A stretch of 64,000 nt of DNA from Cirrosporium novae-zelandiae (GCA_026023565.1 JAPETS010000028.1:1-64000), one strand, 5' to 3'. Positions 1,982 through 52,100 are shown, counted from the first letter of the stretch. Notes: generated by a model from the sequence alone, not told the origin. A program made the numbers and translations.

Positions 1982-2111
1982 CTGACATGTCGGTGCGACA
2001 CTTCTCCGATAATTTATCATGCATAGTCTATGCACACGCCTGTTCCCTCTTTCTGCTACAAGTAGTTCCATACCAAGTACCCAACTTATCTAGTAGATAT
2101 ATCGGATTACC

Positions 2112-25222: not shown

Positions 25223-25475
25223 AAGGTGTTATTTATAAACTTGAAATTTAAATACGATGAAACTGGTATAATATTCGTATAATTATTATACACTTAAAGT
25301 CTATGGTTTCTACTAAGGATTCCGGAAGATGCCGTGCCAAGACTAAATAGTATAACTAGAATATTTTGGATAAATTTAATAAAAGACTATATATAAAACT
25401 ACAGCTAGTAATATAATAAAAAAATAAATTAAATACGATAAACTTTTATTATCGTTAAACGGTTAATAATCGTTA

Positions 25476-28400
25476 TTTTTTTTTTTTTTTTTTTTTTTTT
25501 CATTGTTTTATGTCCATATATCACTTAGAAGCTATGACGGACTCTACTCGGGGGTTTTTAGGCCCCTTGGTATCCTTTTTCGGGCTTATTTTTAACTGTG
25601 GTGGTGGGGGTTACCCCCCTGGTTCAGCTATATAGTTTCCCCCCCTTTTTGGGTTTCCTAGAATTACCTGATTTATCTAACCGGATAGTTTTTTAGCGTT
25701 ATTTCGGTATTCGTAATTTATAAATAGGTTTATTCGCACCTATTTTCGATTTTTTCAATTTTTATTTACGTATACGTTTATCCCGTGTTTTTATTACGGG
25801 CCCAGTTTTTATTTAATATTTATTTTTGGGTCGTTTTTTCTTCCGTGTCCGGGTTCTACCCACCTTTAATCCAGATATATCTCACGATTTTCCGTTTCGT
25901 ATCTGATTTAATATTAGGGTTTTTTTATTTCCGTATCGTTTAAAAAACGTATTCAATTTTTAGAAAATTTTCGGTTTTTTAATACGAATATTAGTTTTTT
26001 TTTTTCGGCTATATTAAATTATTAATTCTTCCGTTTTTTTATTATTTCCCGTAATTAGGTTTTAATTATTTTTTAGCGCGGATATATTAATATTAAATAA
26101 AAAATATTTTAATATAGGGCCCCGTATTATTAATATTTTAGAATAATAATAATTTTCGTACGGTATATATATTCTCCGGTAACGGCGTATCCCGTTTTTA
26201 TTTAATAAAATTTATTTATTAATTTTCTAAACGTATATTTTAATATCCGATTTTTTTTATATTTCGGGTATATTCGATAAAATTTATTAAATAATTTTTT
26301 TATTTTTTAATTATATAATTAATTATACGTTTTTATAATTTATTTTTCTATTATATTACGGGTTATATAAATTAACGAAATTTATTCGGCCGTTTTATTA
26401 TTTTTTAATATCGTGTTTATTTTAATTATTTAATTTATTATTTTATTTTTTAATATTTTATAATATTTTAAAATTTATTTAATAATAATTTTCGTTTTTT
26501 AATCGATTAAATATTTAATATATTTATATATTTTTTATATAATCGTTTAATTTTTTTTTAATTTTTTTTTTTCGATCCGTTTAATAATCGTTTACGAATT
26601 AAATAATATTATTATTTTTTTTTTTAGAAATTTTATAATTATATAAATATATTTTAATTATTATTTATAAAATTATTTACGTTTTTTAAAATTTTATATT
26701 AAATATTTTTTTATTTTAATTTAAATAATATTTTTATATTATTTATAAAATTTTTTCGATTATTTTTTAAATTATTTCTATTTTTATTTTATAATTTTTT
26801 AATTTAAATCCGTCCGATTAATTTATATTTTTTTAATTTTACGTTAACGTTTCGCTGAAAATCTATTATTTTAAAAATATTATTATTTTTTTTAAAAATC
26901 TATTTTTTTCGATTATTTAAATTTTTTCGATTTTAAAATTCGGATTTATTATTTTTTTAAATTATCATTATAATTAAATATTAATTTAATATATTTTTTT
27001 TAATTTTTTAAATTTATTAAAAATTTTTTAACGATTATTTTTTTAATTAAATATTTATATTTTTTATTTTAAATATTATCGATAATATTAGATTCGTTAA
27101 ATTTTTTTCGATTTTTTAAAAATATTAAAATCTATATTTTTTTTATATAATATTTAATATTATATTTACGGGATATATATAGATTTTTTATATAATCGTT
27201 ATTATTAAAATTATTTTATAAATTTTTATTATTAATTTAATAAATTTATTTAATAATTTTTGAAATTTTATTTAATAATCGGTTTATTTTTTTTATTAAA
27301 TTTTATATTTATATATATAAATTAATATTATAATCGTTATAATTATTTAACGTATAAATCCCGTAAATAATCCGTTTCGATAATATATATATTTAATTAT
27401 ATTTTTTATATATTAAATTTTAATTAATCGTTAAATATAATAAATCTAAAAATTAAATTTTAAATTTAATTATATATTTAATTATTATATATAATTTTTT
27501 TTATATTTAATTAAATAATTATTAATCTTAATTTTCGGTTTATTATTTATTTAAATTTAATATTTATATAATTTAAAAAAAATTATAATTTTAATTTTTT
27601 AAATATTAAATTCTAATTTTTTTTTTTATTAAACCGCCGTTTTTATTATTTATTAAATAATTTTTTGGATTTGTTTATTATTTATATAAATAATCGAAAA
27701 ATTTATATTATTTATAAATAATAGAGTTTTAATTTTAAAAACCGTTTATTCTACAGCTGCGAATAGCCCGCTATAATATATTAAAAATAATATTAGGGAT
27801 ATAAATAATTTTTACGGTACCTCTATTTTTATATTAATTCGGGATTATATTTTTTTATCGATTATTAATTCGATATTTCGTTAAATTATAAAATTAATTA
27901 TTTATTTAATAATATTTTTATCGATTTTTAATTATTTTAAACGTTATATTAATTTAGATTATAATATATAATTAAACGTTTTTTTAATATTTATAAATAA
28001 AATATAAATTATTTATTTTTAATTAAATTTTTTTTTTATTTAATATATTAAATATATAAATATATTAATTATATTTTAATTATATTTCGATTTAAATTAA
28101 TTTTTATATAATTTATTTAAATTTTCGTATATATTTATTAATATATTAATTATAATTTTTTTAATTATTTTATTTAAATAATATAATAAATTTATTATTT
28201 TATAATTTTTAATTAATATTTTATTAGTCTTTCCGGATTTAAATAATAATATTTTTTAAATATATTTTTATTACGTCGGATAATATTTTAATCGGAAATA
28301 ATATCGGATTATTTCTATTATTTTATAAAAATCCTATTATTATAATATACGAAACGTTCTAAATTAAATTTTATTATATTTTAAAATTTTATTTATATTT

Positions 28401-31400
28401 TATATATATAACGTTTTTTATATTATTTTTTCGGATAATTATTAAACGAATATTTTTTTTATTAAAAATTAAAATTCGGAATTTTCTAAAAATAATAGAA
28501 AAATTCGTTTTTATATAAAAATTTTTTTATTATTAATTTTTATCGTTATTTTTTTATTTTTTATATAAAATATTAATATTAAATTTTAATTTTAAAATTT
28601 ATAATATTTTAATATTTTTTATTCCCGCTAAATATTTTCGGGATTTAAAAATTTATTTAAATCGTTTTTTTTTATATATATTTAAAAAAAATCGATTTAT
28701 TTTTTTTTTTTTTAATTTTAATTAATTTTATAAATTTTTTAAATATTATTTTAATTTTTTCGTAAATTCGGTATTTTTATTTCGTTTTTTTAAATATTAT
28801 ATAATATTCGTATTTTTTAATAATATATTCGGGATTTTATTACGTTTTCGATTAAATATATATTTATTTAAATTTTATATATTTATTTAAAATAATTTTT
28901 AATTAAATAATAATTTTTTATATTTCGTTTTTTAATTATATTTCCGTATAATTTACGATTAATATATTTTTCGTAATTAATTAAAATTTTTATTTTTATT
29001 TTATTTTAATTTATTATTAAAGATTTTTTAATAATTTTAAATTTTATAAATTTAGAATTAATTAATTTATTTTTAAATAATAATTTTTTTATTTAAATTA
29101 AATAAAAATATAATTTAAATTAATTTTTAATTTATTATTTATATTATCGGTTATTATATTTATTAATTATTTTTAAAACGGTTTTATAATAAAATTAATT
29201 ATTATTTAATTAATTATTAAATAATAAACCGATTTTTATTTAAATTAAATATTTTAAACGATATTATTTTATATAATTAAATTTTATTTTTTTATAAATA
29301 TTATTAAAAACGCGTCGTTTATATAAATAATCCGTTCGGGTTTTTATATTAAATTATAAATATTAAAATTTTTTATTAATATTATTTTATTTTTATTAAA
29401 AATAAATTTTTATTTTATATTTTATAAAATTTTTTTAAATTTTTATTATCGGTTTTATTTTTAAAAATATATATTTTTTAATTAAATTTTTTATTTTTTC
29501 GTTAATATTTATTATATTAATATTTAACGTTATAAAATAAAAATAATTAATTAAATTAATTTTTATAATTATTTTAAATATATTATTTTTTTAATTTTTA
29601 TATATAATAATAATCGTTTTTATAATTTTATTTTTAATTTAAATTTTTAATTCGGATTAATAAAAATTTTATATTAAATATAATATTTTTTTTTTTAATT
29701 TTTAATTAAATTTTTATAATAATATTATATCCGTTCCGATTTATATAATTAATTTTAAAATTACGATTATTATATTATATTTTTTATAATAATTATATTA
29801 TAATATTTTTATTTATAATTCGGATATATCGTTATTTATTTACGATATAAATATTATTAATATTTTCGATATTATTAATATTTCGAATATTATTTATATT
29901 TTTTTTTTCGTTTTTTTTTAAAATTCGGGGATTTTTAATTTTTAATTAAAATTTTTTAAATTTATTTTTTTTTTTTAAAAAAATTAATATATAAAACGAT
30001 TATATAATATTTTTTTAATATTTTTTTTTTATATATTTTATTTTTATTTTTCGGATAATTAAATATTTTCCGTTTATAATTATATAAAAATTTAAATAAT
30101 TTATATATTTTAATAAAATATATATATAAATTTTTATATACGCGGATTTATATTTTATTATTTAATATTAATAATTTTATATTTCGTATATTTCCGCGTA
30201 TATAATATATTTAAAAATTTTATTTTTATATTTTAAAAATAATTTATATTTTAATTAAATATATTTTAAATACGTTTTATTTATTTCTAATATAAATTAT
30301 CGGATATATCGAAATTTATATTTTATTAAATAATAATTTTCGATTTTTTATTTTTTATATATTATAAACGGGAATTTTATTTTAATCGAAATAATATATT
30401 TTTTTAATATAAATCCGGTTCGTATTTATTTTTAATAATATTTTTTCGATATTATTTATACGATTATCGTATCGCAGAATAATTAATATATATTTTCTAA
30501 ATTTTTTTTTATTAAATTTAATTTATTTAAATTTTTAAATATTTTTAGAAATATTTTTTATATTTTTATTTAATATAGAATTTTTAATAAATATATATTT
30601 ATTATCGTATTATTTATTTTCGTTATAATTTTTAAAATTTTTTATTTATATTTAAATATTAATATATTTATATTAATTTTTTTATTAAATATAATTTTTA
30701 AATTATTTTTTTTATTAATATAGATTTCCCGTATCCGTAATTCAGACAATACGTTTAAATTAATTAATTTGGCGTTGATCGCCGTTATTATTAATATTAT
30801 AAAATCTAAATATTCGGTTTTTTTTCTATTAAAAATCAATATTTTTTAATTTTTAGTTTCTATATCCCCGTTTACGGGATTAATACGTTTTTTTTTACGG
30901 GGTTTAATTATTTATTATTTTTTATTAGATTTATCTATTATTTTATTAGTTATTTTAATATAAATAAATCCCGTAAATTCCAGCGTTATTTTTATAAAAT
31001 TTTATTTCGGGATTTTCGGTACTAGCGATAGAATTTTTTATTTGGTTATTTTTACCGTCTATTAAAGATTTTTCTGGGTTTTTTTATCCGTTTATATTAT
31101 TATTCGCGTATTAAATATTTACGATCCGGCTATTATATTTATTCGGGATATTATTAAAAAAAATATTATTTTTTTTTTTTTATTATTTATTCGGATTTAA
31201 TTATTAAAATTATATAATTTTTATTTATAAAATTTTCCGTTCTATTATATATAATTTTTATAATTTTTATTTAAATCTATAATATTTAAATTATTATTAT
31301 AATTATTTTTTTAATTATTAAAAATTTTTATTTAATTATATATAATTTTTTTTGATTTTTTTTTTAAATTTTTATAATTTTATTATCTCGTTTTTTTAAA

Positions 31401-31887
31401 ATAATTATTCGGGTTTTTAAACCGAAAAATATTTCCCGTAATTATATCGTAAAATCGTCGGTTTTTAGAATTTAATATATTTCTTTTTTAATTACGGGAA
31501 ATATACGTATTATTATATATTTAGCCGTTTATTTAATTAAAATATCCCGGTTATTAATCTATTTTTTTTTAGAATTTTTTTTTTCGTAAAATCTTTCGAC
31601 GATATTTTTCCGTTTAATCGTTTTTTTTTTAAAATAAAAATTATAATACCGAATCGCTAGATTTTATTATAAAATTTTATTCCGATTCGTTCGATTCGTT
31701 TTTTAGGCGTTGTCGCTTTTTTATATCCGTTTAATTCTCGCTGATAATACGTATTCTTTCAGCCTCTAATATTTCCCTATTATTATTAGATTCTATAAAC
31801 CTTAAATAAACGTTAATTGTTTCGTATAATAGTCGTCACAATAGTGAATTAATTTGGTGGCGCGGGATCACCAAAAAGCGTTTTTTT
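25476..31887 (-). mobile_element. LINE copy A: full-length (~6.4 kb) Tad-like non-LTR retrotransposon, RIP-mutated, poly(A) tail
   Basis: Poly-T at 25476-25500 is followed by the family 3' end (CATTGTTTTATGTCCATATATC...). The 5' end motif TTTTTGGTGATCCCGCGCCACCAAAT is shared with the copy starts at ~44578 and ~53794. Confidence 0.85.
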
Positions 31888-31903
31888 CTATCCTTTCTAA
31901 ATT

Positions 31904-34900
31904 AAACTCTATTATTAATATCGAAGGCCCCGAAATAAATTTCTATAAAAATAACGCCGGAATCTACGGGATTTATTTATACCAAAATAATTAATAAAAT
32001 AGCAGATAAATCTAATAAAAAATAGCAAATAATTAAGCCTCGTAAAAAAAAATATACTAGTTCCGTAGATAAGGATATAAAAACTGAAAATTAGAAAATA
32101 CTGATTTTTAATAGAAAAAAAATTAAATATTCGGGTTTTATAATACCAGTAATAACGGCGATTAACGCTAAATTAATTGATTTAAACGTACCGTCTGAAT
32201 TACGGATACGGGAAATCTATATTAATAAAAAAAATAATTTAAAAACTATATTTAATAAAAAAATTAATACGGATATATTAATATCTAAATATAAATAAAA
32301 AATTTTAAAAATTATAATAAAAATAAATAACGTAATAATAAATATATATTTATTAAAAATTTTATATTAAATAAAAATATAAAAAATATTTCTTTTCTTG
32401 AGTCCGTCATAGCTTCTAAGCGATATATGGACATAAAACAATGAATAATTATTATCATCAAAAAATATTTCTAAAAATATTTAAAAATTTAAATAAATTA
32501 AATTTAATAAAAAAAAATTTAGAAAAAATTTATTAATTATTCCGAAATATAATAATCGTATAAATAATATTAAAAAAATATTATTAAAAATAGGTACGAA
32601 TTGGGTTTATATTAAAAAAATATATTATTTCGATTAAAATAAAATTCCCGTTTATAATATATAAAAAATAAAAAATCGAAAATTATTATTTAATAAAATA
32701 TAAATTTTAATATATCCGATAATTTACGTTAAAAATAAATAAAATATATTTAAAATATATTTAATTAAAATATAAATTATTTTTAGAATATAAAAATAAA
32801 ATTTTTAAATATATTATATACGCGGAAATACACGAAATACAAAACCATTGGTATCGGATAATAAAATATAAATCCGTGTATACGGGAATTTATATATATA
32901 TTTTATTAAAATATATAAACTGTTTAGACCTTTATATAATTACGGACGGAAAATATTTAATTACCCGAAAAATAAAAATAAAATATATAAAAAAAAAACG
33001 CCGAAAAAACGTTATATAATCGTTCTATATATTAATTTTTTTAAAAAAAAAAATAAATCTAAAAAATTTTAATTAAAAATCAAAAATTTCTAAATTTTAA
33101 AAAAAACGGAAGAAAAATATAAATAATACCCGAAATATCGATAATACCGAAAATATCGGTAATATTTATATCGTAAATAAATAATAATATATCTAAATTA
33201 TAAATAAAAATATTATAATATAATTATTATAAAAAATACGATATAATAATCGTAATTTTAGAATCGATTATATAAATCAGAATAAATATAATATTATTAT
33301 AAAAATCTAATTAAAAATTAAAAAAAAAAATATTATATTTAATATAAAATTTTTATTAATCCGAATTAAAAATTTAAATAAAAAATAAAATCGTAAAAAT
33401 AATTATTATTATATATAAAAATCGAAAAAATAATATATTTAAAATAATTATAAAAACCGATTTAATTAATTATTTTTATTTTATAACGTTGGATATTAAT
33501 ATAATAAATATAAATAAAAAAATAAAAAATTTAATTAAAATAATTAATATTTATAATTAAAAATTAAAAAAACGTATATTTTTAAAAATAAAATCGATAA
33601 TAAAAATCTAAAAAAATTTTATAAAATATAAAATAAAAATCTATTTTTAATAAAAATAAAATAATATTAATAAAAAATTTTAATATTTATAATTTAATAT
33701 AAAAATTTAAATAAATTATTTATATAAACGACGCGTTTTTAATAAAATTTATAAAAAAATAAAATTTAATTATATAAAATAATATCGTTTAAAATATTTA
33801 ATTTAAATAAAAATCGGTTTATTATTTAATAATTAATTTAATAATAATTAATCTTATTATAAAATCGTTTTAAAAATAATTAATAAATATAATAATCGAT
33901 AATATAAATAATAAATTAAAAATTAATTTAAATTACGTTTTTATTTAATTCGAATAAAAAAATTATCGTTTCAAAATAGATTAATTAATTTTAAATTTAT
34001 AAAATTTAAAATCGCTAAAAAACCTTTAATAATAAATTAAAATAAAATAAAAATAAAAATCTTAATTAATTACGAAAAATATATTAATTATAGATTATAT
34101 AGAAATATAATTAAAAAACGAAATATAAAAAATTATTATATAATTAAAAATTATTTTAAATAAATATATAAAATCTAAACGAATATATATTTGATCGAAA
34201 ATATAATAAAATCCCGAATATATTATTAAAAAATATAAATATTATATAATATTTAAAAAAACAAAATAAAAATACCGAATTTATAAAAAAATTAAAATAA
34301 TATTTAAAAAATTTATAAAATTAATTAAAATTAAAAAAAAAAAAATCGATTTTTTTTTAAATATATATAAAAAAAACGATTTAAATAAATTTTTAAATCC
34401 CGAAAATATTTAATAAAAATAAAAAATATTAAAATATTATAAATTTTAAAACTAGAATCTAACGCCGGCGTTCCGTATAAAAAACGAGAAAATAATAATA
34501 GAAATTAAAAATAAAAAAACTTTTATATAAAAACGAATATTTCTATTATTTCTAAAAAATTCTGAATTTTAATTTCTAATAAAAAAAAATATTCGCCTAA
34601 TAATTATCCGAAAAAACGGTACGGAAACTATTATGCGTATAAAATATAAATAAAATTCTAAAATATAATAAAATTTAATTTAAAATATTCCGTATATTAT
34701 AATAATAAAACCCTAATAAAATAATAAAAATAATCCGGTATTATTTTTAATTAAAATATTATTCGACGTAATAAAAATATATTTAAAAAATATTATTATT
34801 TAAATCTAAAAAAATCGATAAAATATTAATTAAAAATTATAAAATAATAAATTTAAATCAAAATATAATTAAAATATAATCGATATATTTATATATTTAA

Positions 34901-37431
34901 TATATTAAATAAAAAAAAATTTAATTAAAAATAAATAATTTATATTTTATTTATAAATATAAAAAAAACGTTTAATTATATATTATAATCTAAATTAATA
35001 TAATATTTAAAATAATTAAAAATCGATAAAAATATTATTAAATAAATAATTAATTTTATAATTTAATAAAACGTCGAATTAATAATCGATAAAAAAATAT
35101 AACCCCGAATCAATATAGAAACAGAAGTATTATAAAAATCATTTATATCTCTAATATTATTTTTAATATATTGCAGCGGGCTATTCGTAGTCGTAAAATA
35201 GGCGGTTTTTAGGGTTAAAACTCTATTATTCGTGGACGACGTAAATTTGTCGATTATTTATATAAATAATAAATAAACCCGGAAAATTATTTAATAAATA
35301 ATAAAAACGGCGGTCTAATAAAAAAAAAAATAAATTAAAATTCGATATTTAAAAAATTAAAATTATAATTTTTTTTAAATTATATAAATATTAAATTTAA
35401 ATAAATATTAAATCGATAATTATTTAATTAAATATAAAAAAAATTATATATAATAATTAAATATATAATTAAACCCGAAATTTAATTTTTAAATTTATTA
35501 CGTTTAGCGGTTAATTAAAATCCGATATACGGAAAATATAATTAAATATATATATTACCGAAATAAATTATTTACGGGATTTACGTATTAAATAATCGTA
35601 ATAATTATAATATTAATTTATATATACGGATATAAAATTTAATAAAAAAAATAAATCGATTATTAAATAAAATTTTAAAAATTATTAAATAAATTTATTA
35701 AATTAATAATAAAAATTTCTAAAATAATTTTAATAATAATAATTATATAAAAAATCTATATATATCCCGTAAACGTAATATTAAATATTATATAAAAAAA
35801 ATATAGATTTTAATATTTTTAAAAATCGAAAAAAATTTAACGAATCTAATATTATTAATAATATTTAAAATAAAAAACGTAAATATTTAATTAAAAAAAT
35901 AATTATTAAAAAATTTTTAATAAATTTAAAAAATTAAAAAAAATATATTAAATTAATATTTAATTATAATAATAATTTAAAAAATAATAAATTTAAATTT
36001 TAAAATCGAAAAAATCTAAATAATCGAAAAAAATAATAATATTTCTAAAATAATAAATTTTTAACGAAACGCTAATATAGAATTAAAAACACGTATATTA
36101 ATTAAATAAATCTAAATTAAAAAACCGTAAAATAAAAATAGGAATAATTTAAAAAATAACCGAAAAGATTTTATAAATAATACGGAAATATTATTTAAAT
36201 TAAAATAAAAAAATATTCGATATAAAATTTTAGAAAATATAAACGGCCTTATAAATAGCGGTTAAAATATACCTAAATAATTATAAAATTCCCGAAAAAA
36301 AAATAATAATATTATTTGATTCGCAAACGGCTATTAAACGGATCGAAAAAAAAAATTAAAAAAAATTAAATAATTATATAAAAAATATACGAATATACCA
36401 GATATTTAATAAATCAAAAAATAAAAATCGCTATTAAATAGGTTCTAAAATATTATAGAATATTAAAGAACGAAATAATAAATTAAACGGCCAAAATAAA
36501 TATAATATTAAAAAATAATAAAATAACTAAATAAATTTCGTTAATTTATATAATCCGTAATATAACGGAAAAATAAATTATAAAAATATATAATTAATTA
36601 TATAATTAAAAAATAAAAAAATTATTCGATAAATTTTATCGAATATATCTAAAATATAAAAAGAATTAGGTATTAAAATATATATTTAAAAAATTAATAA
36701 ATAGATTCTATTAAATAAAAACGGGATACGCCGTTATTAAAGAATATATATATTATATAAAAATTATTATTATTCTAGAATATTAATAATACGGGGTTTT
36801 ATATTAAAATATATTTTATTTAATATTAATATATCCGCGCTAAAAAATAGTTAAAGCCCGTTTACAGGGAATAATAAAAAAATAAAGGGATTAATAATCT
36901 AATATAGCCGAAAAAAAAAACTAATATTTATATTAAAAAACCGAAAATTTTTTAAAAATTAGGTGCGTTTTTTAAATAATACGGAAATAAAGAAACCCCA
37001 GTCCTGAGCTAAATATAAAACGGAAAATCGTAAAACGTACCTGGATTAAAAATAGGTAGAACCCGGATATAAAAAAAAAAACGATCCAAAAATAAATATT
37101 AAATAAAAAATTGGGCCCGTAATAAATACGCGGGATAAACGTATACGTAAACAAAAACTGAAAAAATCGAAAATAAATACGAATAAATTTATTTATCGAT
37201 TACGAATACCGAAATAGCGCTAAAAAATTATCCGGGTAAATAAATTAGATAATTTTAGGAAATCTAAAAAAAGGGGGAAACTATATAACCGAATCAGGGG
37301 GGTGATCCCCATTATTTTAGCTAAAAATAAGCCCGAAAAAGGATACGAAAAAATCTAAAAACCCCCGAATAGAGTCCATTATAGCTTCTAAACGGTATAT
37401 AGATATAAAACAATGAATAATCATCATCATC
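31904..37431 (+). mobile_element. LINE copy B: 5'-truncated, RIP-mutated, ending in an AATAAT(CAT)n tail
   Basis: Reverse complement of copy A from ~31040 downwards. RT catalytic relic TTCGTGGACGAC (FVDD) at 35229-35240. Ends ACAATGAATAATCATCATCATC. Confidence 0.85.
32394..32459 (+). mobile_element. ~66-bp extreme 5'-truncated LINE 3'-end insertion with 13-bp TSD
   Basis: GAGTCCGTCATAGCTTCTAAGCGATATATGGACATAAAACAATG plus tail, flanked by AAAAAATATTTCT at 32381-32393 and 32460-32472. Confidence 0.85.
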
Positions 37432-37544
37432 AATAATCGTTATAAAAAACCTGGTTTAAAAAAGAAACTGCCCGCTATTTAATAATAGATTTAACACTAA
37501 TCAACCCCGCAATAAGGTCGCTCTAAAGGTGATCGGCGGATAAA

Positions 37545-40500
37545 TTAATTTTATATTAACGTTTCGTTGAAAATTTGTTATTTAGGAAATATTATTATTT
37601 TTTTTAAAAATCTATTTTTTTGGATTATTTAGATTTTTTCGATTTTAAAATTCGGATTTATAATTTTTTAGATTATTATTATAATTAAATATTAATTTAA
37701 TATATTTTTTTTATATAATATTAAATATTATATTTAGAGAGGCTGGTCGGGTCTTTAGCCAGACCCAGCTTTTAGCCGAAAACACTATAACTTTAATTAT
37801 TCAAATATAATCGACCAACTTATATATTAATTTATATAGAATTACCCTCTATAATTTTTTATTAAAATAAGAAATTTCTAAGAAACTGATTTTTTTTTTA
37901 TTAAATAATTTTGGTTTTCCCCGTTTTTTTCCCTCCGATTTTTTAATTTTATTCTATTTTTATTTCTCCCGCTATTTCTGTAATTCGCGCTCGATATTTT
38001 GTTTATTAATAAATCGATTATTTAAATTAATTATTAGTTTTGCACACGTATTATATTTAAAAATATTTATTTTAATTTACGTTTATTTAAATTATATATT
38101 TATTAAATTTTCGTTGAAATTTTATTAATCGAATTATTTATCGATTTTATTTATTAAAATTCGGAAATCTCGATTTAATATTACGTCGAGATTTTTTATT
38201 AATTTTTTTTAGCTGTTTTCTATTATAAAAGATATCGAAAAATTTAAAAAAATTCGATTGAAAACGTTTAAAAAACGGAATAATTATTTTAAAAAAAAGA
38301 AAAATCGAATTTTTAAATTCGGAAAAAATAAATACTCGGTTAGAATTATAAAAATAGATTCTAGTTTTTTTTTATCCAGCTATAATTATCCGACGAATTA
38401 AATATTTAATACGAGTTTTATTATATATAATAATGAATTTGTTTTTTTTAATAAATATAACGTTATTTTATATAAAAAGATTTTTAATTTTTTTTTTATA
38501 TACGTTTTTTAGAAAAAAAAACACGTTTTTATTTAAAAATTGCAACAAATAAAATATATAAATAAATAAATATAAATATTATATATTATTTTAATAATAT
38601 AATTATATAAATTCTAAAAATATATAATTATTATATCTATTAAATAATAAAATTCGAGCTCTAAACTTATTCGGAGAAATATAAAAAAAAAAATAATCCG
38701 TAATTACGTAATAATAATTTTATTATTCGTCCAATTATTAAAAAAAACAGTATAATATATATTAAAAACCGAATTATTAAATTAAGCGATTATAAGATTT
38801 TTTTTTTTAAATATAATAAAATATAGAATATATTTTCTCCGAATAAATATAGTTTCTAATATAATAATCTAATTACGATTTTCCGGTATAATTTGAATCG
38901 TATATCGTTGATTTATACGTCTAATAATTTTAATAATATTAATATATATTTTTATTATAATTCTTATTTTATTTATATTTTATATATTTTTTAGTTCGAT
39001 TTTATATTCGGTTTTAATATATTCGAAAAAAATAAAAAAACCGATAATATTATCGATAATAAAATAAATTCGGTCGATCGAAAAAAATCGATTTTAAAAA
39101 ATTTTAATATTATCGTATTAATTAATAAATCGAATTATTTATTTTTAATTAAACGAATTTAATTTAGCGAAATATTAGACGATATAAAAAATAAAATAAC
39201 GTATAAATTTAAATATTAAAATTTAATTTCGGTTATTTAAAAATTTTATTTAATTGATTATTGCAATTTCTTGAATATCGATCAAAAATTATTATTTTAT
39301 ATACGATTTACGTATTAATTGATAATAACCGTGAAATCGATTTGCTAATATAAATTAATTAACCCTATATATAGCCGTAAAAACTCGGATATTTGAAAAA
39401 ATATTTTTATTATAATCAGAAATAGTTTTTTATAAAATTGCTTTATCAATAAATTAATAAGGTATTGTGGGGGTGATAAATATAAAGAAATTGATTGAGG
39501 GGTGAGTTGGAGATGAGGTGGAAGTTAGTGTTTTTTTCGGCTAAAAACTGGGTCTGGCTAAAGACCCGACCAGCCTCTCTATAGAATATATATAAATTTT
39601 TTATATAATTATTATTATTAAAATTATTTTATAAATTTTTATTATTAATTTTATAAATTTATTTAATAATTTTTGAAATTCTATTTAATATCCGATTTAT
39701 TTTTTTTATTAAATCTTATACCCGTATATATAAATTAATATTATCGTCGTTACGATTATTTAACGCGTAAACCCCGTAAATAACCCGTTTCGATAATATA
39801 TATATTTAATTACGTTTTTCGCGCGTTTAATTTTAATTAAACGCTGGGCGTAATAGATTTAAAAATTAAATTTCGGATTTAATTATATATTTAATTACCG
39901 CACGTAATTTTTTTTATATTTGATCGGATAATTATCGATCCTAATTTTCGGTTTCGTATTTATCTAAATTTAGTGTTTACGTAATCTAAAAAACGCTATA
40001 ATCTCAGTTTTTTAAACGTCGAATTTTAATTTATTTTTTTTTTTTATTGAAACGCCGTTTTCGTTATTTATTAAATAGTTTTCCGGGTTTATTTATTATT
40101 TATATAAATAGTCGAGAAATTTACGTCGTTCACGAATAATAAAATTTTAATTCTAAAAACCGTTTATTCTATAACTGCGAATAGCCCGCTGTAATATATT
40201 AAAAATAATATTAAGGATACGAATAATTTTTATAGTATCCCTATTTTTATATTAATTCGGGATTATATTTTTCTATTAATTATTAATTCGATATTTCGTT
40301 AAATTATAAAATTAATTATTTATTTAATAATATTTTTATCGATTTTTAATTATTTTAAACGTTATATTAATTTAAATTATAATATATAATTAAACGTTTT
40401 TTTTACGTTTATAAATAAAATATAAATTATTTATTTTTAATTAAATTTTTTTTTATTCGATATATTAAATATATAAATATATCGATTACGTTCCGGTTAT

Positions 40501-43500
40501 ATTTCGATCTAAATTAATTTTTATATAATTTATTTAGATTTTTATATATATCCGTTAACGCGTTAATTATAATTTTTTCGATTATTTTATTTAAATAATA
40601 TAATAAATTTATTATTTTATAATTTTTAATTAATATTTTATCGGTTTTTCCAGATTTAAATAATAATATCCCCCGGGTATATTTTTATTACGTCGGGTGA
40701 TATTTTAACCGGAAATAATATCGGATTACCCCCGTTATTTTACAGAGATCCCACTATTATAATATATGGAACGTTTTAAATTAGATTCCGTTATATTTTA
40801 AGATTTTATTCGTATTTTATACGTATAACGTTTTCCGTATTATTTTTTTAGATAATTGTTGAACGAATACCTTTTTTATCGGAAACCGAGGTTCGGGGTT
40901 TTTTGGGAATAGCGGGAAGGCTCGCTCCCGTATAAAGGCTTGTTTATTTTTAGTCTCCACCGCTACCCTCCCGTCTTCTATACGGAGCGCCGGTGTCGGG
41001 TCTCGGTTTTGGGGCTTGCAGTATTTTAATGCTTTCCATCCCCGTTGAATACTTTCGGGGCTTAGGGGTTTGCCTAGGTCGTCTCCCCCCATATATATTT
41101 GGAGAAAGTCGGTCCATTTATCGCTTTTTTTTGCCCTAAATTCGGGGTTTTTTAAAAATAACGGGAAAACTCGTTTCCGTATAAAAATTTTTTTATTTGT
41201 AATTTTTACCGTTATTCTCCCGTTTTTTATATAGAACGCCGATATCGGGTTGCGGTTTTAAAATTTATAATATTTTAATATTTTTTATCCCCGTTAAATA
41301 TTTTCAGGATTTAAAAATTTATTTAAATCGTTTTTTTTTATATATATTTAAAAAAAATCGATTTATTTATTTTTTTTTTTAATTTTAATTAATTTTATAA
41401 ATTTTTTAAATACCGTTTTAATTTTTTTATAAATCCGGCGTTTTTATTTCGTTTTTTTAAATATTATATAATATTCGTATTTTTCAATAATATATTCGGG
41501 GTTCTATTAAATTTTCGATCAGGCGTATATTTATTTAGATTTTATATATTTATTTAAAATAATTTTTAATTAGATAATAATTTTTTATATTTCGTTTTTT
41601 AATTACGTTTCCGTATAATTTACGGCTAATATATTTTTTATAATTAATTAAAATTCTTATTTTTATTTCGTTTTAATTTATTATTAAGGATTTTTTAACG
41701 GTTTTAAATTCTACGAATTCGGGGTTAGCTAATCTGTTTTTAGATAATAATTTTTTTATTCGAATTAAATAAAAACGTGGTCTAAATTAATTTTTAATTT
41801 ATTATTTATATTATCGGTTATTACGTTTATTAATTATTTTTAAAATAATTTTATCGCGGGATTAATTATTATTAAATTAATTATTAAATAATAAATCGAT
41901 TTTTTTTCGAATTAAATATTTTAAATAATATTATTTTATATTATTAAATTTTATTTTTTTATAAATATTATTAAAAACGCGTCGTTTATATAAATAATCC
42001 ATTCGGGTTTTTATATTAAATTATAAATATTAAAATTTTTTATTAATATTATTTTATTATTATTAAAAATAAATTTTTATTCTATATTTTATAAAATGTT
42101 TTTAGATTTTTATTATCGGTTTTATTTTTAAAAATATATATTTTTTAATTTTTAATCGTAAATATTAATTATTTTAATTAAATTTTTTATTTTTCCGTTT
42201 ACGTTTATTATATTAATATTTAATATTACGAAATAAAAATAATTAATTAAATCGGTTTTTACCATTATTTTAAAAATAACGTTTTTTCGATTTTTGCGTA
42301 TAATAATAACCGTTTTTACGATTTTATATCCCGTTTAAATTTTTAATTCGGGCTAATAAAAATTTTATATTAAATATAATATTTTTTTTTTAATTTTTAA
42401 TTAGATTTTTATAATAATATTATATCCGTTCTAATTTATATAATCGATTTTAAAATTATAATCGTTATATCGTATTTTTTATAATAATTATATTATAATA
42501 TTTTTATTTATAATTCGGATATATTATTATTTATTTATAATATAGATATTATCGATATTTTTAATATTATCGATATTTCGGATATTATTTACGTTTTTTT
42601 TTCTATATTTTTTTAGAATTCGGGAGTTTTTGATTTTTAATTAAAATTTTTTAGATTTATTTTTGTTTTTAAAAAAATTAATATATAAAACGATTATATA
42701 ACGTTTTTTCGATATTTTTTTTTTATATATTCTGTTCTTGTTTTTCGGATAATTAAATATTTTCCGTCCGTAGTTATATAAAGGCCTAAATAATTTATAT
42801 ATTTTAATAAAATATATATATAAATTCCTGTATACGCGGGCTTATATTTTATTATCCGATATTAATAATTTTATATTTCGTATATTTCCGTATATATAAT
42901 ATATTTAAAGGTTTTATTTTTATATTCTAAAAATAATTTATATTTTAATTAAACGTATTCTAAATACGTTTTATTTATTTTTAACGTAAATTATTAAATA
43001 TATCGAAATTTATATTCCGTTAAATAATAATTTTCGATTTTTTATTTTTCGTATATTATAAACGGGAATTTTATTTTAATTAAAATAATATATTTTTTTA
43101 ATATAAATTTAATTTATATTTATTTTTAATAATATTTTTCCAGTATTATTTATACGATTATCGTATCGTAGAATAATTAATATATATTTTTTAAATTTTT
43201 TTTTATTAAATTTAATTTATTTAAATTTTTAAATATTTTTAAAAATATTTTTTATATTTTTATTTAATATAAAATTTTTAATAAATATATATTTATTATT
43301 ACGTTATTTATTTTCGTTATAATTTTTAAAATTTTTTATTTATATTTAAATATTAATATATCCGTATTAATTTTTTTATTAAATATAATTTTAAAATTGT
43401 TTTTTTTATTAATACAAATTTCCCGTATTCGTAATTTAAATAATATATTTAAATTAATTAATTTAACGTTAATCGCCGTTATTATTAATACCGTAAAATC

Positions 43501-44578
43501 TAAATATTCGGTTTTTTTTTTATTAAAAATCTGTATTTTTTAATTTTCAATTCTTATATTCTCATTTACGGAATTAATGCGTTTTTTTTATAAGATTTGA
43601 TTATTTATTATTTTTTATTAAATTTATTTATTATTTTATTAATTATTTTAATATAAATAAATCCCTTAAATTCCGGCGTTATTTTTATAGAATCTTATTT
43701 CGGGATTTTTAATATTAACGGTAGAATTTTTCATTTAATTATTTTTATCGTTTATTAAAAAATTTTTTAGATTTTTTTATTCGTTTATATTATTATCCGC
43801 GTATTAAATATTTACGATTCGATTATTATATTCGTTCGGAACGTTATTAAAAAAAATGTTTTTTTTTTTTTTATTATTTATTCGGATTTAATTATTAAAA
43901 TTATATAATTTTTATTTATAAAATTTTCCGTTTTATTATATATAATTTCTACAATTTTTATTCGGATTTATAATATTTAAATTATTATTATAATTATTTT
44001 TTTAATTATTAAAAATTTTTATTTAATCGTATATAATTTTTTTTAATTTTTTTTTTAAATTTTTATAATTTTATTATCTCGTTTTTTTAAAACGATTATT
44101 CGGATTTTTAAATTGAAAAATATTTCCCGTAATTATACCGTAAAATCGTTGATTTTTAGAATTTAATATATTTTTTTTCTGATTACGGGAAATATACGTA
44201 TTATTATATATTTAATTATTTATTTAATTAAAATATTTTAATTATGAATTTATTTTTTTTTAAAATTTTTTTTTTTTATAAAATCTTTCGACGACGTTTT
44301 TTCGTTTAATCGTTTTTTTTTTAAAATAAAAATTATAATACCGAATTATTAAATTTTATTATAAAATTTTATTATAATTTATTCGATTCGTTTTTTAAAC
44401 GTTATCGTTTTTTTATATTCGTTTAATTTTCGTTAACGATATATATTTTTTTAATTCCCGATATTTTTTTATTATTATTAAATTTTATAAATTTTAAATA
44501 AATATTAATTATTTTATATAACGATTATTATAATAATAAATTAATTTAATAATATAAAATTATTAAAAAACGTTTTTT
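37545..44578 (-). mobile_element. LINE copy C: 3'-deleted, 5' end present, interrupted by a DNA transposon and carrying a 249-bp internal tandem duplication
   Basis: Colinear with copy A from ~26840 to its 5' end. An unmutated ORF2 piece WKALKYCKP..PTPALR lies at 40890-41130. Confidence 0.8.
37737..39579 (-). mobile_element. Pogo/Fot1-like Tc1-mariner DNA transposon (1843 bp), RIP-inactivated
   Basis: ~46-bp TIRs GAGAGGCTGGTCGGGTCTTTAGCCAGACCCAG.TTTTAGCCGAAAA with TA duplications at 37735-36 and 39580-81. A minus-strand relic from ~39465 reads NIRVFTAIYRV...LANRFHG, resembling an HTH-psq transposase N-terminus. Confidence 0.85.
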
Positions 44579-44674
44579 AATAAAAATAAATTTTTTTTAT
44601 ATTAACGAAATATTATTCGATTTTTTAAATATAATTTATATAATATATTTTAACGATATTTTGATTTATTTATT

Positions 44675-46958
44675 TAATATCGCGGAATATACGATATATA
44701 TACGGATAATATTAGAATAATTATATAAATATAAATTATATATAAAATTATTAAAATATATATTTAATAAATCAAAAATAACGTTTCTAGATTTCGCAAT
44801 TAAAACGTAAAAAATCCGTATAAAAAAAAAAATAAAAATAATTTTAAAATAATTAAAATTAAAAAATTATTATAATATTTAAATTTTTATTGAATTCGTT
44901 AATTTTTATAAAAAATTTATAAAAAATTATTTAAAAATAATAAATTTTATTATAAATTTATTAAAAAAAATAAAAAACGATAAAAAAATAAAAAAATTTA
45001 TATAATCCGAAATTATATAAACGATATTTAAAATATTTAAAAAAATATTTACGATAATATTTATATTATATTATTTTAATTTAACGAAAATAATAAAAAT
45101 AAAAACGGATATATTATAAAAAAAAATTACGGGAATTCTATTATAATTAAACGACGAACGTACGGAATAATTATAAAATAAAATATAATATTTAATTATA
45201 TTTTAATTAAAAAAATTAATAAAATTAAAATAAAAATATATAATATACGATTTTGAATTATTCGTAATTATAAAAAAATTTAAAAAATAAAATTATTATT
45301 TATAAAAAAATAAATATATAATATAAATATTAATAAATTATAAAAATTTATAATTATTTATAAAAATAACGGCGTTAAATAAATAATAAATATATTAAAT
45401 AAAAATATTAATAAAATACGATTTCGAAATAATATATAAAATAAAAAAAATTAATCTAATAAATATATTATTAAAAAAATTAGATTATATAAAAAAAAAC
45501 GGAAATAAAAAAACGAAAAATAAATTATTATTTATATTATAAAATAAATTTAAATAATATAAAAAAAATAAAATTAAAATATTCGATTAATTAATAATTA
45601 TAATAACGATATTAAATTATATAAAATATAAATTATTTACGGAAAAAATTTTTTTAATATCAAAAAAAATTTTAAAAATAATAAAAAAAAATAATAAAAT
45701 AAAATTTTTTTTAGAATATATTACGGAAAATATATAATATATATATAATTATTTATTATTATAAAAAATATATAAAATAATAATAATAAAAAATAAATTA
45801 AAAAAAAAAATATTAGAAATATTAATAAATTTATTACGGAAAATACAAAAATTAAATTTTTAATATAAAATATATATAAAAAAAAAAAAAAAAAATAAAA
45901 CGAAAACGATACGGATTTATTACGAAAAAATAAAATAATATACGTATTAAACGATATCGCGCCAAAAAAAAAATAATAAAAATAAATTATAATTTTCCGT
46001 AATTTAAAAAATATTTCGGAAACGAAAAAATAAAAAAAATAATAAATAAAAAATATTAATAAATAAAAATAAACGAAAATATTAAAAAATACGTAAAACG
46101 ATACGATATATATTAACGATCGAAAACGCGTTATTATCGGTTTTACGGAATTCTAATATTATTATAATATTTCTAAAATTTAATAAAAATAATAATAATA
46201 AATTTTATTATCGATTTACCGTTAAATAAATAAAACGATAATATATATATATTATATACGAAAAAAACGAAAATAAAAAATTTAACGGAATTAATATAAA
46301 AAATAATCGGAATAAAATTTAAAATATTTAAAAATATAATATCGAATAAAAAATTAATATTTATTAATATTTATTAAAAATTATTTTATTATTATTTAAT
46401 AATATAAAAAAAATTAAATATTATTTATTATTTATAAACGGATAATTAAATCGAAAAATAAAATTAAATATTAAAAAAATATTTAAAAATATATTATAAT
46501 CATAATTAAAACGATTAAATAATATTATTAATAAACGCAGAATATATATATAATAATACGAAATATTAGAAAACGAAAAAAACGTTATTCGAAATAATAT
46601 ATACATTTAAACCAAAATTAAGAATAAATATAAAAAAAATAAAAAAAAACGAAAATTTTATTAAAAAAATACGTATAAAAAAAATAAAAAAAATATAAAA
46701 AAAAATATAAAAAATATAAAAAAAATCAATTTTAAAATAAAAAATTTATTACGATCGCTATTATATATCGAAATAATATAAAATAAAAAATCAGATATTA
46801 TTAATAATAAAAAATATAGAAACGAAATAAATAAATAAAAAATTAAACGTAAAATATTTAGAATCGTTTATCGTAAAAATTATATACGAATAAAACGCGT
46901 ATTGGCTACGGCTATTTTAGTAATACCAGAAATTATATCCGATATTCTACGTATCACT
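44675..46958. repeat. Unclassified RIP-mutated repeat, possibly a TIR (hAT-like) element
   Basis: A-skewed and AT-rich, not colinear with the LINE. The right end ...ATATTCTACGTATCACTG has a weak inverted match to TAATATCGCGGAATAT... at the left. No TSD found. Confidence 0.25.
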
Positions 46959-48070
46959 GTTAGAATCTTACAAAAAAAATCCGGATTACGAATCCCCAGA
47001 ATTAATATTATTAATAGGAATACCGGAATATATAATAGAAAAAATATTAGAATATAAAAAAAAAAAAAGAAAAACGAATATTTAATAAAATAAAAAAACT
47101 GGTTATATACGGAAAATTAATAAAAAAATATTGAAAATCTAACGAATTACTAAAAAAATATAAAAATATTTTAAAAAAAAAAAAAAAGAAAAAATAATAA
47201 AAAATAAAAAAAATAAAAATAAAAATAAAAATACCGCCGGAAAAAAAATAAAACAAAATAAAAAAAAATTAAAAAAATAATAAAAAAAAAAAAGAATTTT
47301 ATTAACGATTTTAAAAATCACAAAATATTTACCGAAAAAAAAAACGCGTTTTAAACGTACGTAATCCGTAATAAAAAACGCTCGAACACTAATAATTATA
47401 TAAAAAATTTAAATATCGATCGTATTCCTAATAACGCTAGAATTTTTATTATTTTTAGAAGCCGAATCAGTATTAATATTAATATCCGTAAAAGCGTCGT
47501 TAAAAAAAAGGTTGTAGAAGAAATAATTTACGTCGTCGTTATTATCCTTTTTTTTATTATTATCGATATTTACGTTATATTATCCAAAATTAATCAAAAA
47601 AAAAAACATACGAAAATAAAAAAAATACGTATAATAACCGTAAATATCTGACCTAATCACCGAATAAATTGATTGACCTCAAATAATAATTGGTTGATAC
47701 GGGCGTAAGAATCAGATAATATAATACGTTCTAACCGACGGGTAATTATAATCCGACGGTAGAAACGACGGACCGAAACCAAAAACTCTTTACGAAAAAC
47801 GGCACTAATATTATTGGAACGGGCGGAAACGATAATATTGGTTTACGCAAATAAACGGTTTAAACGAAATACCAGAATAAAAAAAATCTGGAAAAATAAT
47901 AAATAAATAAAAAAAAAAAAAAAAAAATAAAAAAATAAAAAAAAAAATAATATTTCGAGATATTTTTTATATTACCTATAATAGACGCTACAGGAGCGGC
48001 CAGATATCTGGGAATATACGAGGGAAGGATTTGCCGCAAGACGCCAGAGATATTTCAGATATATAAATCT

Positions 48071-48228
48071 GAAGGGGAGAGCGTCACGAATAATAGCAAC
48101 AGGGTTGGGGACGGAGGAAAAAAAACGCGAAAAAAATATAATAATAATAATAATAAATAAAAAAATAAATAAAAAAAAAAAAAATCTAAAATATAATTAA
48201 CAGGGACGTCGAAAAAACAGAAACGGGG

Positions 48229-48295
<67 letters not shown>

Positions 48296-48510
48296 AAAAA
48301 AAAAAAAATAAAAAAATATTTACGAACGGTGCTAAAAAAATAGGAAAAAAAAAATAGGAAAAAAATAGCGATTATTTATATTCAAAAACAAAAACGTTAA
48401 TCCGAATAAAAAATAAAAATAATAATTTTAGAGAAACGGAATAATTAATAAAAATAAAAATAATAATATTAACGTAATAAATAAATAAAAAAAATAATGA
48501 AAAAAACTTT

Positions 48511-48545
<35 letters not shown>

Positions 48546-49147
48546 ATAATTTTAGAGAAACGGAATAATTAATAAAAATAAAAATAATAATATTAACGTA
48601 ATAAATAAATAAAAAAAATAATGAAAAAAACTTTTATTAAAAAAAAAAAAAAAAAAAATAAAAAAAATAATAATTTCGCCGAATAAAAAACGATAATAAA
48701 TAAAAAACGGAATTTACGTATATTATAATATTATTAAATCTAAAAAAAAAAAAAGTTATATTTAACGGAACGGAAAATTAATATTAAAAAATTAAAAATA
48801 ATAATTAAAAATAATCGTATAAAAAAAAAATTATATTATAAAAAAAAAAAAAAAAAATATTAAAAAAAAACTCTATTGTAAAAAAAAAAAATAGAATATT
48901 AAAAAAAATCGTTGTATTTAAAAACTAAAAACGGGATAAAAATAGGGAAATAATATTATATAATACCGATAAATTATCGAAAAAACGTCAAATAAAAAGA
49001 TTTATATAAAAAAATAAAAAGAAAACTGGGAAAAACTAGGTTTTAGTTTTGTATTATACAGGAATACTATTATTTAAATACTACTACGATATAGACACAC
49101 TACCTATCCGCCTCGCTACCTACACTATCAGAGCCCCAACCTTGACA
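48071..49147 (+). mobile_element. Probable 3' LTR of an LTR retrotransposon with its polypurine tract
   Basis: PPT-like GAAGGGGAGAG is immediately followed by CGTCACG (canonical TGTCACG) at 48082 and ends CCTTGACA at 49147 (TGTCA..TGACA inverted ends). The interior is RIP-mutated with poly-A expansions. Confidence 0.45.
48418..48660. repeat. Near-identical ~124-bp tandem duplication bounded by poly-A runs
   Basis: AATAATTTTAGAGAAACGGAATAATT...CTTTTATTAAAAAA occurs twice back-to-back. Confidence 0.8.
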
Positions 49148-49174
49148 GTTACGATTATTTAATATGTAAATTTT

Positions 49175-52100
49175 ATAAATAATCCATGGGGGTGGTCCGA
49201 CATTGCTTCCGGCTAGGGTATCACCCGACGCAGTGGAAATGTGCCCGGGGGATATTACTATTCAAGCCTGGAAGAACCAACAAAATATTAATTAAAAATT
49301 ATAGAGTAATAAATTTATTATATTATTTAAATAAAATAATCGAAAAAATTGCAATTAACGCGTTAACGGATATATATAAAAATCTAAATAAATTATATAA
49401 AAATTAATTTAGATCGAAATATAATTGAAATATAATTAATATATTTATATATTTAATATACCGAATAAAAAAAAATTTAATTGAAAATAAATAATTTATA
49501 TTTTATTTATAAATATTAAAAAAACGTTTAATTATATATTATAATTCAGATTAATATAATATTTAAAATAATTAAAATCGATAAAAATATTATTAAATAA
49601 ATAATTAATTTTATAATTTAATAAAATATCGAATTAATAATCCACAGAAAAATATAATCCCGAATTAATATAAAAACGGAAATACTATAAAAATCGCCTA
49701 TATTTTTAATATTATTCCTGATATATTATAGCGGGTTATTCGTAATCGTAGAATAAATAACTTTTAGAATAATAATAATGATGATTATTCATTGTTTTAT
49801 ATTTATATATCGCTTAGAAACTATAACGGACTCTATTCGGGGGTTTTTAGGTTTTTTTATATCCTCTTTCGGGCTTATTTTTAATTAAAATAATAGGGGT
49901 TACTTTTCTAATTCGGTTATATATTTTCCCCTTTTTTTTAGATTTTTTAGAATTATCTAATTTATTTAACCGGATAATTTTTTAACGTTATTTCAGTATT
50001 TGTAATTTATAAATAAATTTATTCGTATTTATTTTCGATTTTTTCAATTTTTATTTATATATACGTTTATTTTATATTTTTATTACGGGCCCAATTTTTA
50101 TTTAATATTTATTTCTGGATGGTTTTTTTTTTCGTATCCGGGTTCTATTTATTTTTAATTTAAATACGTTTTACGATTTTTTATTTCGTATTTAATTTAA
50201 TATTAGGGTTTTTTTATTTCTATATTATTTAAAAAGCGTATTTAATTTTTAAAAAATTTTCGATTTTTTAATATAAATACCAGTTTTTTTTTTCGATTAT
50301 ATTAGATTATTAGTTTTTTTATTTTTTTATTATTTTTTATAAACGGGTTTTAATTATTTTTTAATACGGGTATATTAATATTAAATAAAATATATTTTAA
50401 TATAAAATTTTATATTATTAATATTCCGGAATAATAATAATTTTTGTATAATATATATATTTTTTAATAACGGCGTACCCCGTTTTTATTCAATAAAATT
50501 TATTTATTAATTTTTTAAACGTATATTTTAATATCTAATTTTTTTTATATTTTAAATATATTTAATAAAATTTATTGAACGATTTTTTTATTTTTTAATT
50601 ATATAATTAATTATATATTTTTATAATCTGTTTTTTTTATTATATTACGGATTATATAAATTAACGAAATTTATTTAATTATTTTATTATTTTTTAATAT
50701 TATATTTATTTTAATTATTTAATTTATTATTTCGTTTTTTAATATTTTATAATATTTTAAAATTTATTTAATAATAATTTTCGTTTTTTAATTTATTAAA
50801 TATTTAATATATTCGTATATTTTTTATATAATTATTTAATTTTTTTTTAATTTTTTTTTTCGATTTATTTAATAATCGTTTACGAATCAAATAATATTAT
50901 TATTATTTTTTTAGGAATTTTATAATTATTTAAATATATTTTAATTATTATTTTTAAAATAATTTATATTTTTTAAAATTTTATATCGAATATTTTTTTA
51001 TTTTAATTTAAATAATATTTTCGTATTATTTATAAAATCTTTTCGATTATTTTAAATTATTTCTATTTTTATTTTACGATTTTTTAATTTTACGTTAACG
51101 TTTCGCTAAAAATCTATTATTTTAAAAATATTATTATTTTTTTCGATTATTTAGATTTTTTTAATTTTAAAATTTAAATTTATTATGTTTTAAATTATTA
51201 TTATAATTAAATATTAATTTAATATATTTTTTTTAATTTTTTAAATTTATTAAAAATTTTTTAACGATTATTTTTTTAATTAAATATTTATATTTTTTAT
51301 TTTAAATATTATTAATAATATTAGATTCGTTAAATTTTTTTCGATTTTTTAAAAATACCGAAATCTATATTTTTTTTATACGATATTTAATATTATTTTT
51401 ATAAAATATATATAGATTTTTTATATAATCGTTATTATTAGAATTATTTTATAAATTTTTATTATTAATTTAATAAATTTATTTAATAATTTTTAAAATT
51501 TTATTTAATAATCGATTTATTTTTTTTATTAAATTTTATATTTATATATATAAATTAATATTATAATCGTTATAATTATTTAATATATAAATTTTATAAA
51601 TAATTTATTTTAGTAATATATATATTTAATTATTTTTTCCGCGTATTTAATTTTAATTAACAGTTAAACGTAATAAATTTAGAAATTAAATTTCGGGTTT
51701 AATTATATATTTAATTACTATATATAATCCGTTTTATATTTAATTAAATAATTATTAATTCTAATTTTCGATTTAATATTTATTTAAATTTAGTATTTAC
51801 GTAATTTAGAAAAAAATATAATTTCGATTTTTTAAATATCGAATTTTAGTTTATTTCTTTTTATTGAACCGCCGTTTTCGTTATTTATTAAATAGTTTTT
51901 CGGGTTTATTTATTATCTATATAAATAATTGAGAAATTTACGTTATCCACGAATAATAAGATTTTAATTCTAGAAACCGTCTATTTTACGGCTGCGAATA
52001 GCCCGCTGCAATATATCAGAAATAATATTAGGGATACGAATAACTTTTATAATACCCCGTTTTTATATTAATTCAGAATTATATTTTTCCGTCGATTATT

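Follow-up and report, generated by a model that had tools for sequence, protein, structure and literature searches.

Two LINE copies with different outward-facing tails inside one target-site duplication in Cirrosporium novae-zelandiae: a possible product of dual priming on two RNAs

The window analysed here is a stretch of 64,000 nucleotides (nt) from Cirrosporium novae-zelandiae (GCA_026023565.1, JAPETS010000028.1:1-64000). Among sequencing runs of one study, the stretch is contained in one (share 0.68), and two more, labelled as other organisms, contain almost none of its words. It contains two copies of one long interspersed element (LINE), referred to as A and B, that lie head to head within a single target-site duplication and carry different 3' tails at their outer ends. 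The window consists of a genic part (1-25 kb, GC 0.38-0.51) and an AT-rich block that extends from ~25.4 kb to the window end (GC 0.07-0.26). The ratio (CpA+TpG)/(ApC+GpT) is 1.25 in the genic part and 0.23-0.39 in the block, with values of 0.23 for copy A and 0.30 for copy B. This low ratio, together with an excess of transitions between A and B, identifies the copies as repeats mutated by repeat-induced point mutation (RIP) and the genome as one of the filamentous-fungus type. Since ordinary alignment is noisy in AT-rich DNA, the elements were annotated by BLAST in a purine/pyrimidine alphabet, which is blind to RIP transitions. In this annotation, nested copies of one ~6.39-kb element make up most of the AT-rich block.

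The structure of these copies points to a LINE with a tandem-repeat tail. They have a common 3' end followed by a simple-repeat or poly(A) tail, are truncated to different extents at the 5' end, and are flanked by target-site duplications of differing sequence, which are 13, 14, and 14 base pairs (bp) long at nested copies and 12 bp long around A and B. Six 3' ends are visible in the window, with the common ending ...ATAAAACAATGA. The tail ...ACAATGAATAAT(CAT)n, that is AATAAT(CAT)n, is present at five of the six, partly altered by RIP; copy A has the sole 3' end with poly(A) (...ACAATGA, then 24 A). The 5' ends fall at element positions 1, 1, 1, 852, 2702, 3502, 3570, and 6344, and the 5' terminus is common to three copies within ~3 nt (31886/31887 in A, 44578, and 53786). 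The coding sequence is degraded by RIP, and nine translations read through stop codons matched no Pfam family. A homologue search with a 64-amino-acid peptide from un-RIPped element sequence gave no match, and the ESM Atlas leads for this peptide, all below 0.9, point weakly to Exo_endo_phos and jockey-like reverse transcriptase clusters. The peptide also contains GSDH, which may resemble the C-terminal motif of apurinic/apyrimidinic (AP)-type endonucleases. Metagenome scans for the 3' end of the element and for a motif in its 3' untranslated region (UTR) yielded no matches for either.

Copies A and B meet 5' to 5', and both of their tails face outward (Table 1). On the left, T24 stands beside the 12-mer and leads into TCATTG, in which the end of the element is read in reverse complement. 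The poly(A) of A occupies the place of the family's usual AATAAT(CAT)n tail. On the right, the second 12-mer lies directly 3' of ...ACAATGAATAATCATCATCATC. Copy A is judged to be full length from its 5' terminus, which lies within ~3 nt of those at 44578 and 53786. The two copies are connected by a filler, and a search for its origin gave chance-level matches only. Neither AATAATYRTTAT nor any copy of the 12-mer, even a RIP-degenerate one, is found at the inner junction. The arms align over 5413 positions with 88.8% identity, 565 of the 608 mismatches being transitions, and are separated by a spacer of 867 nt. Indels specific to one arm include a nested mini-insertion in B that is absent from A and is made up of the element's final 46 nt with a tail, preceded by 6 extra nt; B also shows a 94-nt gap in the alignment of the copies. 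An earlier note, made from the sequence alone, had described a full-length minus-strand copy and a 5'-truncated plus-strand copy with the same 12-mer directly beside the poly(A) of one and the (CAT)n tail of the other, meeting through ~15 nt of non-element sequence with no duplication there, as a quasi-palindrome with ~5.5-kb arms and a ~0.85-kb spacer. Read directly, the locus agrees with this description, with 16 nt at the junction. All four CpA dinucleotides in the tail of B (37416-37431) are intact. Four other repeat tails are partly RIPped (49771-49787, 57506-57520, 62407-62425, and 32446-32459), and the outer 150-200 nt of both arms are less RIPped than the arm interiors.

Table 1. Coordinates of the head-to-head pair and of other insertions in the window
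Feature	Position	Strand	Remarks
Left copy of 12-bp direct repeat AATAATCGTTAT	25465-25476	+	Target-site duplication
3' tail of copy A	25477-25500	-	24 A on the minus strand (T24 on the plus strand)
Copy A	25501-31887	-	Full length, ~6.39 kb; GC 0.13; heavily RIP-mutated
Filler CTATCCTTTCTAAATT	31888-31903		16 nt at the 5'-to-5' junction; non-element
Copy B	31904-37431	+	5'-truncated; element positions 852-6389 plus tail AATAATCATCATCATC (~37416-37431)
Mini-insertion in B only	32394-32459	+	66 nt, later; 13-bp duplication AAAAAATATTTCT at 32381-32393 and 32460-32472
Right copy of 12-bp direct repeat AATAATCGTTAT	37432-37443	+	Target-site duplication
Relic H	37436-37542	+	Same LINE, old, little RIPped; element ~2626-2731
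Nested insertion c497	49771-52618		Ordinary; 14-bp duplication of its own
Nested insertion c575	57506-61037		Ordinary; 14-bp duplication of its own

The pair with its shared 12-mer is real and well above chance. Exact AATAATCGTTAT occurs three times in the window when both strands are counted, and the third occurrence (44518-44529, minus strand) is a RIP product inside another copy. The worry, voiced when the repeat was first noticed, that the match might be accidental is not borne out. A random pair of 12-mers from 25.3-64 kb would match with a probability of 7e-6 as calculated from composition and of 7e-5 as estimated empirically. In eight control pairings of other minus- and plus-strand tail ends, the longest flank match was 0-6 nt with ±6 nt of slop allowed, whereas the flanks of A and B, at offset 0, match exactly over 12 nt. 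The repeat could be as long as 15 bp, and its left copy could reach to 25462, once RIP-type transitions are tolerated at the bases just upstream (G/A, T, and T/C). Either length, 12 or 15 bp, fits the 13-14 bp duplications of the family.

The two copies are also each other's closest relatives on transversions, as a comparison of their RIP-blind variants, suggested earlier as a check, has shown. The transversion distance between A and B is 6.3 per kb over 5271 sites, while the other pairs (with at least 900 sites) range from 7.7 to 36 per kb. They have six derived transversions in common, and any other pair has at most three. Their private transversions are the lowest of all copies (1.7 per kb in A and 2.4 per kb in B, compared with 3.7-6.5 per kb in others and 25 per kb in the copy c555). 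Decay of the arms is equal: A and B each retain 0.45 of the inferred ancestral C/G, within a range of 0.40-0.59 for the other copies, and the excess of co-retained sites is 1.39 for A and B and 0.93-1.23 for the other 20 pairs. These values fit a history in which A and B, as young sister copies, would have entered together and been RIPped as partners.

The different tails bear directly on the number of templates. RIP changes C to T and G to A and cannot turn poly(A) into (ATC)n or the reverse; two RNA 3' ends were therefore copied. Because the tails differ, the arms come neither from one RNA 3' end nor from snap-back copying nor from a fold-back at the DNA level. Snap-back self-copying of one cDNA, a DNA-level fold-back, inverted duplication or inversion, and an assembly fold-back are all ruled out as sources of A and B on this ground, and the 11% divergence of the arms and their arm-specific indels also speak against the last of these. 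Copying from two templates is the most economical reading. A single event is the best-supported course of the insertion, as both copies, with their tails outward, share a single flanking duplication whose length is normal. Moreover, the single aberrant tail lies on the single aberrantly placed copy, as expected of priming at the second nick by simple annealing. One insertion event of the "dual priming" kind, with two RNAs copied at once, is in our judgement evenly poised between acceptance and rejection. The earlier note had proposed double target-primed reverse transcription on two templates; of this proposal, the two RNA 3' ends stand on the different tails, and the single event is unproven and competes with a sequential route.

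The sites of cleavage and a further copy in the window are relevant to this reading. At the nick sites (primer end^downstream), B has GATTATT^AACC and A has CGTTAT^AAAA, and in sequence these sites look like those of three ordinary insertions (TTTTTT^ATAT, AGAAT^TAAA, and TATAT^AAAT). In copy c491, the plus-strand body (49186-49770), which starts at element position 3570, is directly fused to 40 nt of antisense element sequence (49148-49187, element 4552 to 4513). The inverted piece lies within a region of the element that is also present in the main arm, and the 3' end and duplication of c491 are out of view. This arrangement is a twin-priming-like 5' inversion, and it suggests that second-nick priming may occur in this LINE family.

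Under dual priming, the empty site before insertion would have been ...AAACGGTT-AATAATCGTTAT-AAAAAACCTGG..., and the endonuclease would have nicked both strands in the usual staggered fashion, with 12 (up to 15) bp between the nicks, at ...AAACGGTT/AATAATCGTTAT/AAAAAACC.... The 3'-OH of the minus strand (...ACGATTATT-3') would have primed on an element RNA with the canonical (AUC)n end, with the cDNA stopping at element position 852 to give B. The 3'-OH of the plus strand (...CGTTAT-3') would have used the poly(A) of another, polyadenylated RNA of the element for priming; this RNA, copied to its 5' end, would have given A. The two cDNA ends would then have been joined 5' to 5' with 16 extra nt, fill-in of the stagger would have produced the single flanking duplication, and RIP would afterwards have decayed both arms together. 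We tentatively, and with somewhat less than even confidence, regard the locus as a sequence-resolved natural product of dual priming, that is, of one staggered break and two reverse transcriptions on two RNAs, one canonical and microsatellite-tailed and the other polyadenylated and full length.

The right border of the insertion is formed by relic H, whose distance to every other copy is 5-8 transversions per 100 nt. At its 5' edge, H shares the final 8 nt of the right 12-mer, and these 8 of the 12 nt align to element positions 2626-2632 with one indel. The LINE homology of the right flank scores 80 against a shuffle mean of 35.9, and that of the left flank scores 38 against a mean of 41.8; as a hidden LINE or H-like piece, the left flank scores below the shuffle means. 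The 3' end of H lies outside the window. At 37543/37545, H abuts a fragment in antisense orientation (37545-37713, element 5055 to 4886), and in the purine/pyrimidine code this fragment shows 97.6% identity to A. H and this fragment converge and both are without 3' parts, which suggests that a deletion removed both tails.

Several points weigh against dual priming. It does not predict the position of the 12-mer on the 5' edge of H, for which a rough count would put coincidence at ~1%. This position suggests either that the 12-mer is the earlier target duplication of H itself, with microhomology to the element, at a site that was re-used, or that TTAT^AAAAAA is a favoured nick site; a re-used hot spot may help sequential scenarios too. 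The 12-mer begins with AATAATC, like the tail of the element, and the frequency of poly(A) tails rests on six ends in one window. One-sided RIP changes are found at 320 sites in A only and 245 in B only, the direction expected if A were older, and gene conversion between the arms could mimic the sister relationship of the two copies. The assignment of the element to the LINEs is structural only. Finally, we infer that the two reactions were simultaneous, in which order they were primed, and how their products were joined.

The alternative that survives best, though we consider it unlikely, is that A was inserted first by ordinary target-primed reverse transcription, giving the order L-T-A-T-H (T being the 12-mer), and that B was inserted later at a blunt cut, without a duplication and with the 16 extra nt at its 5' junction, exactly between the 5' end of A and the right 12-mer. 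After the insertion of A, the plus strand of this junction would have read GCGTTTTTTT^AATAATCG and its minus strand GATTATT^AAAAAAACGC (TTTTTTT^AATAAT / ATTATT^AAAAAAA). Two T-run^A-run nick sites of the kind used by other insertions would thus have stood exactly opposite each other, which makes a blunt double nick plausible. 5'-truncated L1 insertions with short or absent duplications are described in excerpts of PMC2912911, and B is 5'-truncated. Extra nt are also known in this LINE family, with six at the 5' junction of the mini-insertion. The greater number of one-sided RIP changes in A would follow from its earlier arrival, and the same 12-mer at the border of the older relic H suggests a repeatedly hit site. 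This sequence of events would, however, need a solo insertion from an RNA with the aberrant poly(A) tail seen at one of six ends, a nick exactly at the terminal nt of A, whose 5' end is intact to ~1 nt, and an insertion free of duplication, although three of three ordinary insertions have duplications of 13-14 bp. The equal C/G retention of A and B, their low and similar private loads, and their sister status fit one time point better than two.

It is improbable that B came first with the 12-bp duplication and A later, without one, into the site between the left 12-mer and the 5' end of B, or that a rearrangement (deletion, inversion, or gene conversion) lost the middle 12-mer from an L-T-A-T-B-T-H array at a re-used hot site. 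The nest is heavily rearranged, as seen in the truncated H abutting the truncated antisense fragment, in a ~250-bp overlap between the two fragments of a further copy, copy2, and in internal deletions in c555, and the 12-mer site bordering H fits repeated use. If B had been first, however, the plus-strand nick for A would have been CGTTAT^CTATCC, with the filler belonging to B, which is a poorer match to nick sites elsewhere. A rearrangement would have to combine the exact loss of the middle 12-mer with an intact 5' terminus of A and 16 unrelated nt, which is ad hoc, and the junction holds no degenerate trace of the 12-mer.

An assembly mis-join or fold-back combined with a coincidental 12-mer is very improbable. 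In its favour, the 12-mer is AT-rich and begins like the element's tail, and AATAATCATTAT, which is one transition away from it, forms the RIPped tail of another copy (57511-57522). But with 11% divergence and with indels specific to one arm, a nested insertion among them, the arms are not the fold-back of one read. The exact match at offset 0 (0-6 nt in the eight controls) has a chance of ~1e-5 to 1e-4, the orientation of the 12-mer on the side of A is wrong for a tail remnant of A, and if two unrelated loci had been mis-joined, there would be no explanation for the 12-mer that they share.

Twin priming accounts for about one third of L1 insertions. In this process, described for human L1 (Ostertag and Kazazian 2001; excerpts in PMC2912911 and bioRxiv 10.1101/2024.08.27.596794), an inverted segment lies beside a non-inverted one inside one duplication. 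As proposed here for A and B, reverse transcription is primed from each 3'-OH end of a single staggered break, and two cDNAs are joined. In twin priming, however, the same RNA is used by the second primer, which anneals to an internal site; a single tail is present, and the inverted piece continues the other in the 5' direction with little overlap. Both arms of the A/B pair, by contrast, begin at 3' tails that differ from each other, and their overlap amounts to 5.5 kb (element 852-6389). The inverted layout within one duplication is therefore found at this locus, and the single tail and the near-contiguous segments of classical twin priming are not. The junction also differs, with 16 extra nt between A and B, while L1 inversion junctions often show microhomology in the excerpted text of PMC2912911. 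The extranucleotides given there for 3.9% of insertions of 5'-inverted L1 refer to the 5' junction and not to the inversion junction.

The locus is closer to dual priming, which Meyer, Srikanta, Conlin, and Batzer (2010, Mob DNA 1:7; PMC2837659, in excerpt) put forward for L1 as speculation, in the hope of later validation. In their model, two mRNAs are each annealed by the tail to one nick, and the antisense and sense cDNAs are joined internally. At the present locus, a tail stands beside the duplication at both ends, the arms are antisense and sense, and two template molecules can be distinguished. The same excerpt reports no microhomology at the internal junctions and suggests end-joining. 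Their evidence consists, according to that text, of 39 primate loci with only a 5' poly(T) beside a truncated L1, which are inseparable from variants of twin priming. By contrast, the antisense arm of the A/B pair is a complete 6.4-kb copy, the templates are told apart by their tails, and the host is a RIP-active fungal-type genome whose LINE has a microsatellite tail. A full-text literature search for "dual priming" together with "retrotransposon" returned only PMC2837659.

Two further systems offer partial parallels. Antisense chimeras of L1 with tRNA, 5S rRNA, or mRNA are ascribed to twin priming on a second RNA (excerpt of PMC13174262). There too, reverse transcription from the other end of the break copies a second RNA, which is joined in opposite orientation, but the partner is a fragment of a cellular RNA, whereas in A and B it would be a second full element RNA. 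LINEs with tandem-repeat tails and a 3' end that is recognised in a "stringent" way include the I element, whose repeat is (TAA)n, and UnaL2, whose repeat is (TGTAA)n (excerpt of PMC3747384). The family of A and B resembles them in its short-repeat 3' end, AATAAT(CAT)n, after a conserved 3' UTR, in its variable 5' truncation, and in its duplications of 12-15 bp. It differs from them in that copy A carries poly(A) instead and in that the coding sequence of the family is too RIP-degraded for Pfam.

The concept of dual priming is thus already known from the excerpted PMC2837659, and the A/B pair, if the reading is right, is an unusually clear example of this postulated variant of twin priming. 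The pair is a single decayed locus with an unproven mechanism. Nevertheless, its long arms with different tails are the kind of evidence that the primate loci lacked, and they come from a distant LINE family. If dual priming took place, the second nick can accept a whole second template by simple annealing of its tail, even where the family normally uses a specific repeat tail. A 12-kb inverted repeat would then arise in one step and be a ready substrate for RIP, hairpin RNA, and rearrangement. Outward-facing tails within one duplication, with none at the inner junction, provide a signature that can be searched for in long-read assemblies.

The remainder of the AT-rich block contains other copies of the element and further repeats. 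In c497 and c575, the GC-rich 5'-terminal edges (77 nt at 52541-52617 and 236 nt at 60802-61037, respectively) are essentially un-RIPped in copies that are otherwise heavily RIPped. An origin of these edges from foreign RNA by template switching was considered and is ruled out; they are un-RIPped element sequence that matches the element in the purine/pyrimidine code at 76-77 of 77 positions in c497 and 221-222 of 225 in c575. Two adjoining minus-strand fragments of copy2 (39578-42150) overlap at element positions 3167-3416; either ~250 bp were duplicated in tandem or two different copies meet here. The region of overlap has a raised GC content (40851-41180, GC 0.46). The AT-rich stretches at 37714-39577, 44579-49147, 53214-53785, and 62426-63700 have no homology to the LINE that is recognisable by purine/pyrimidine BLAST and presumably belong to other decayed repeat families. 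Strong AT and GC skew is observed at 47-49 kb.

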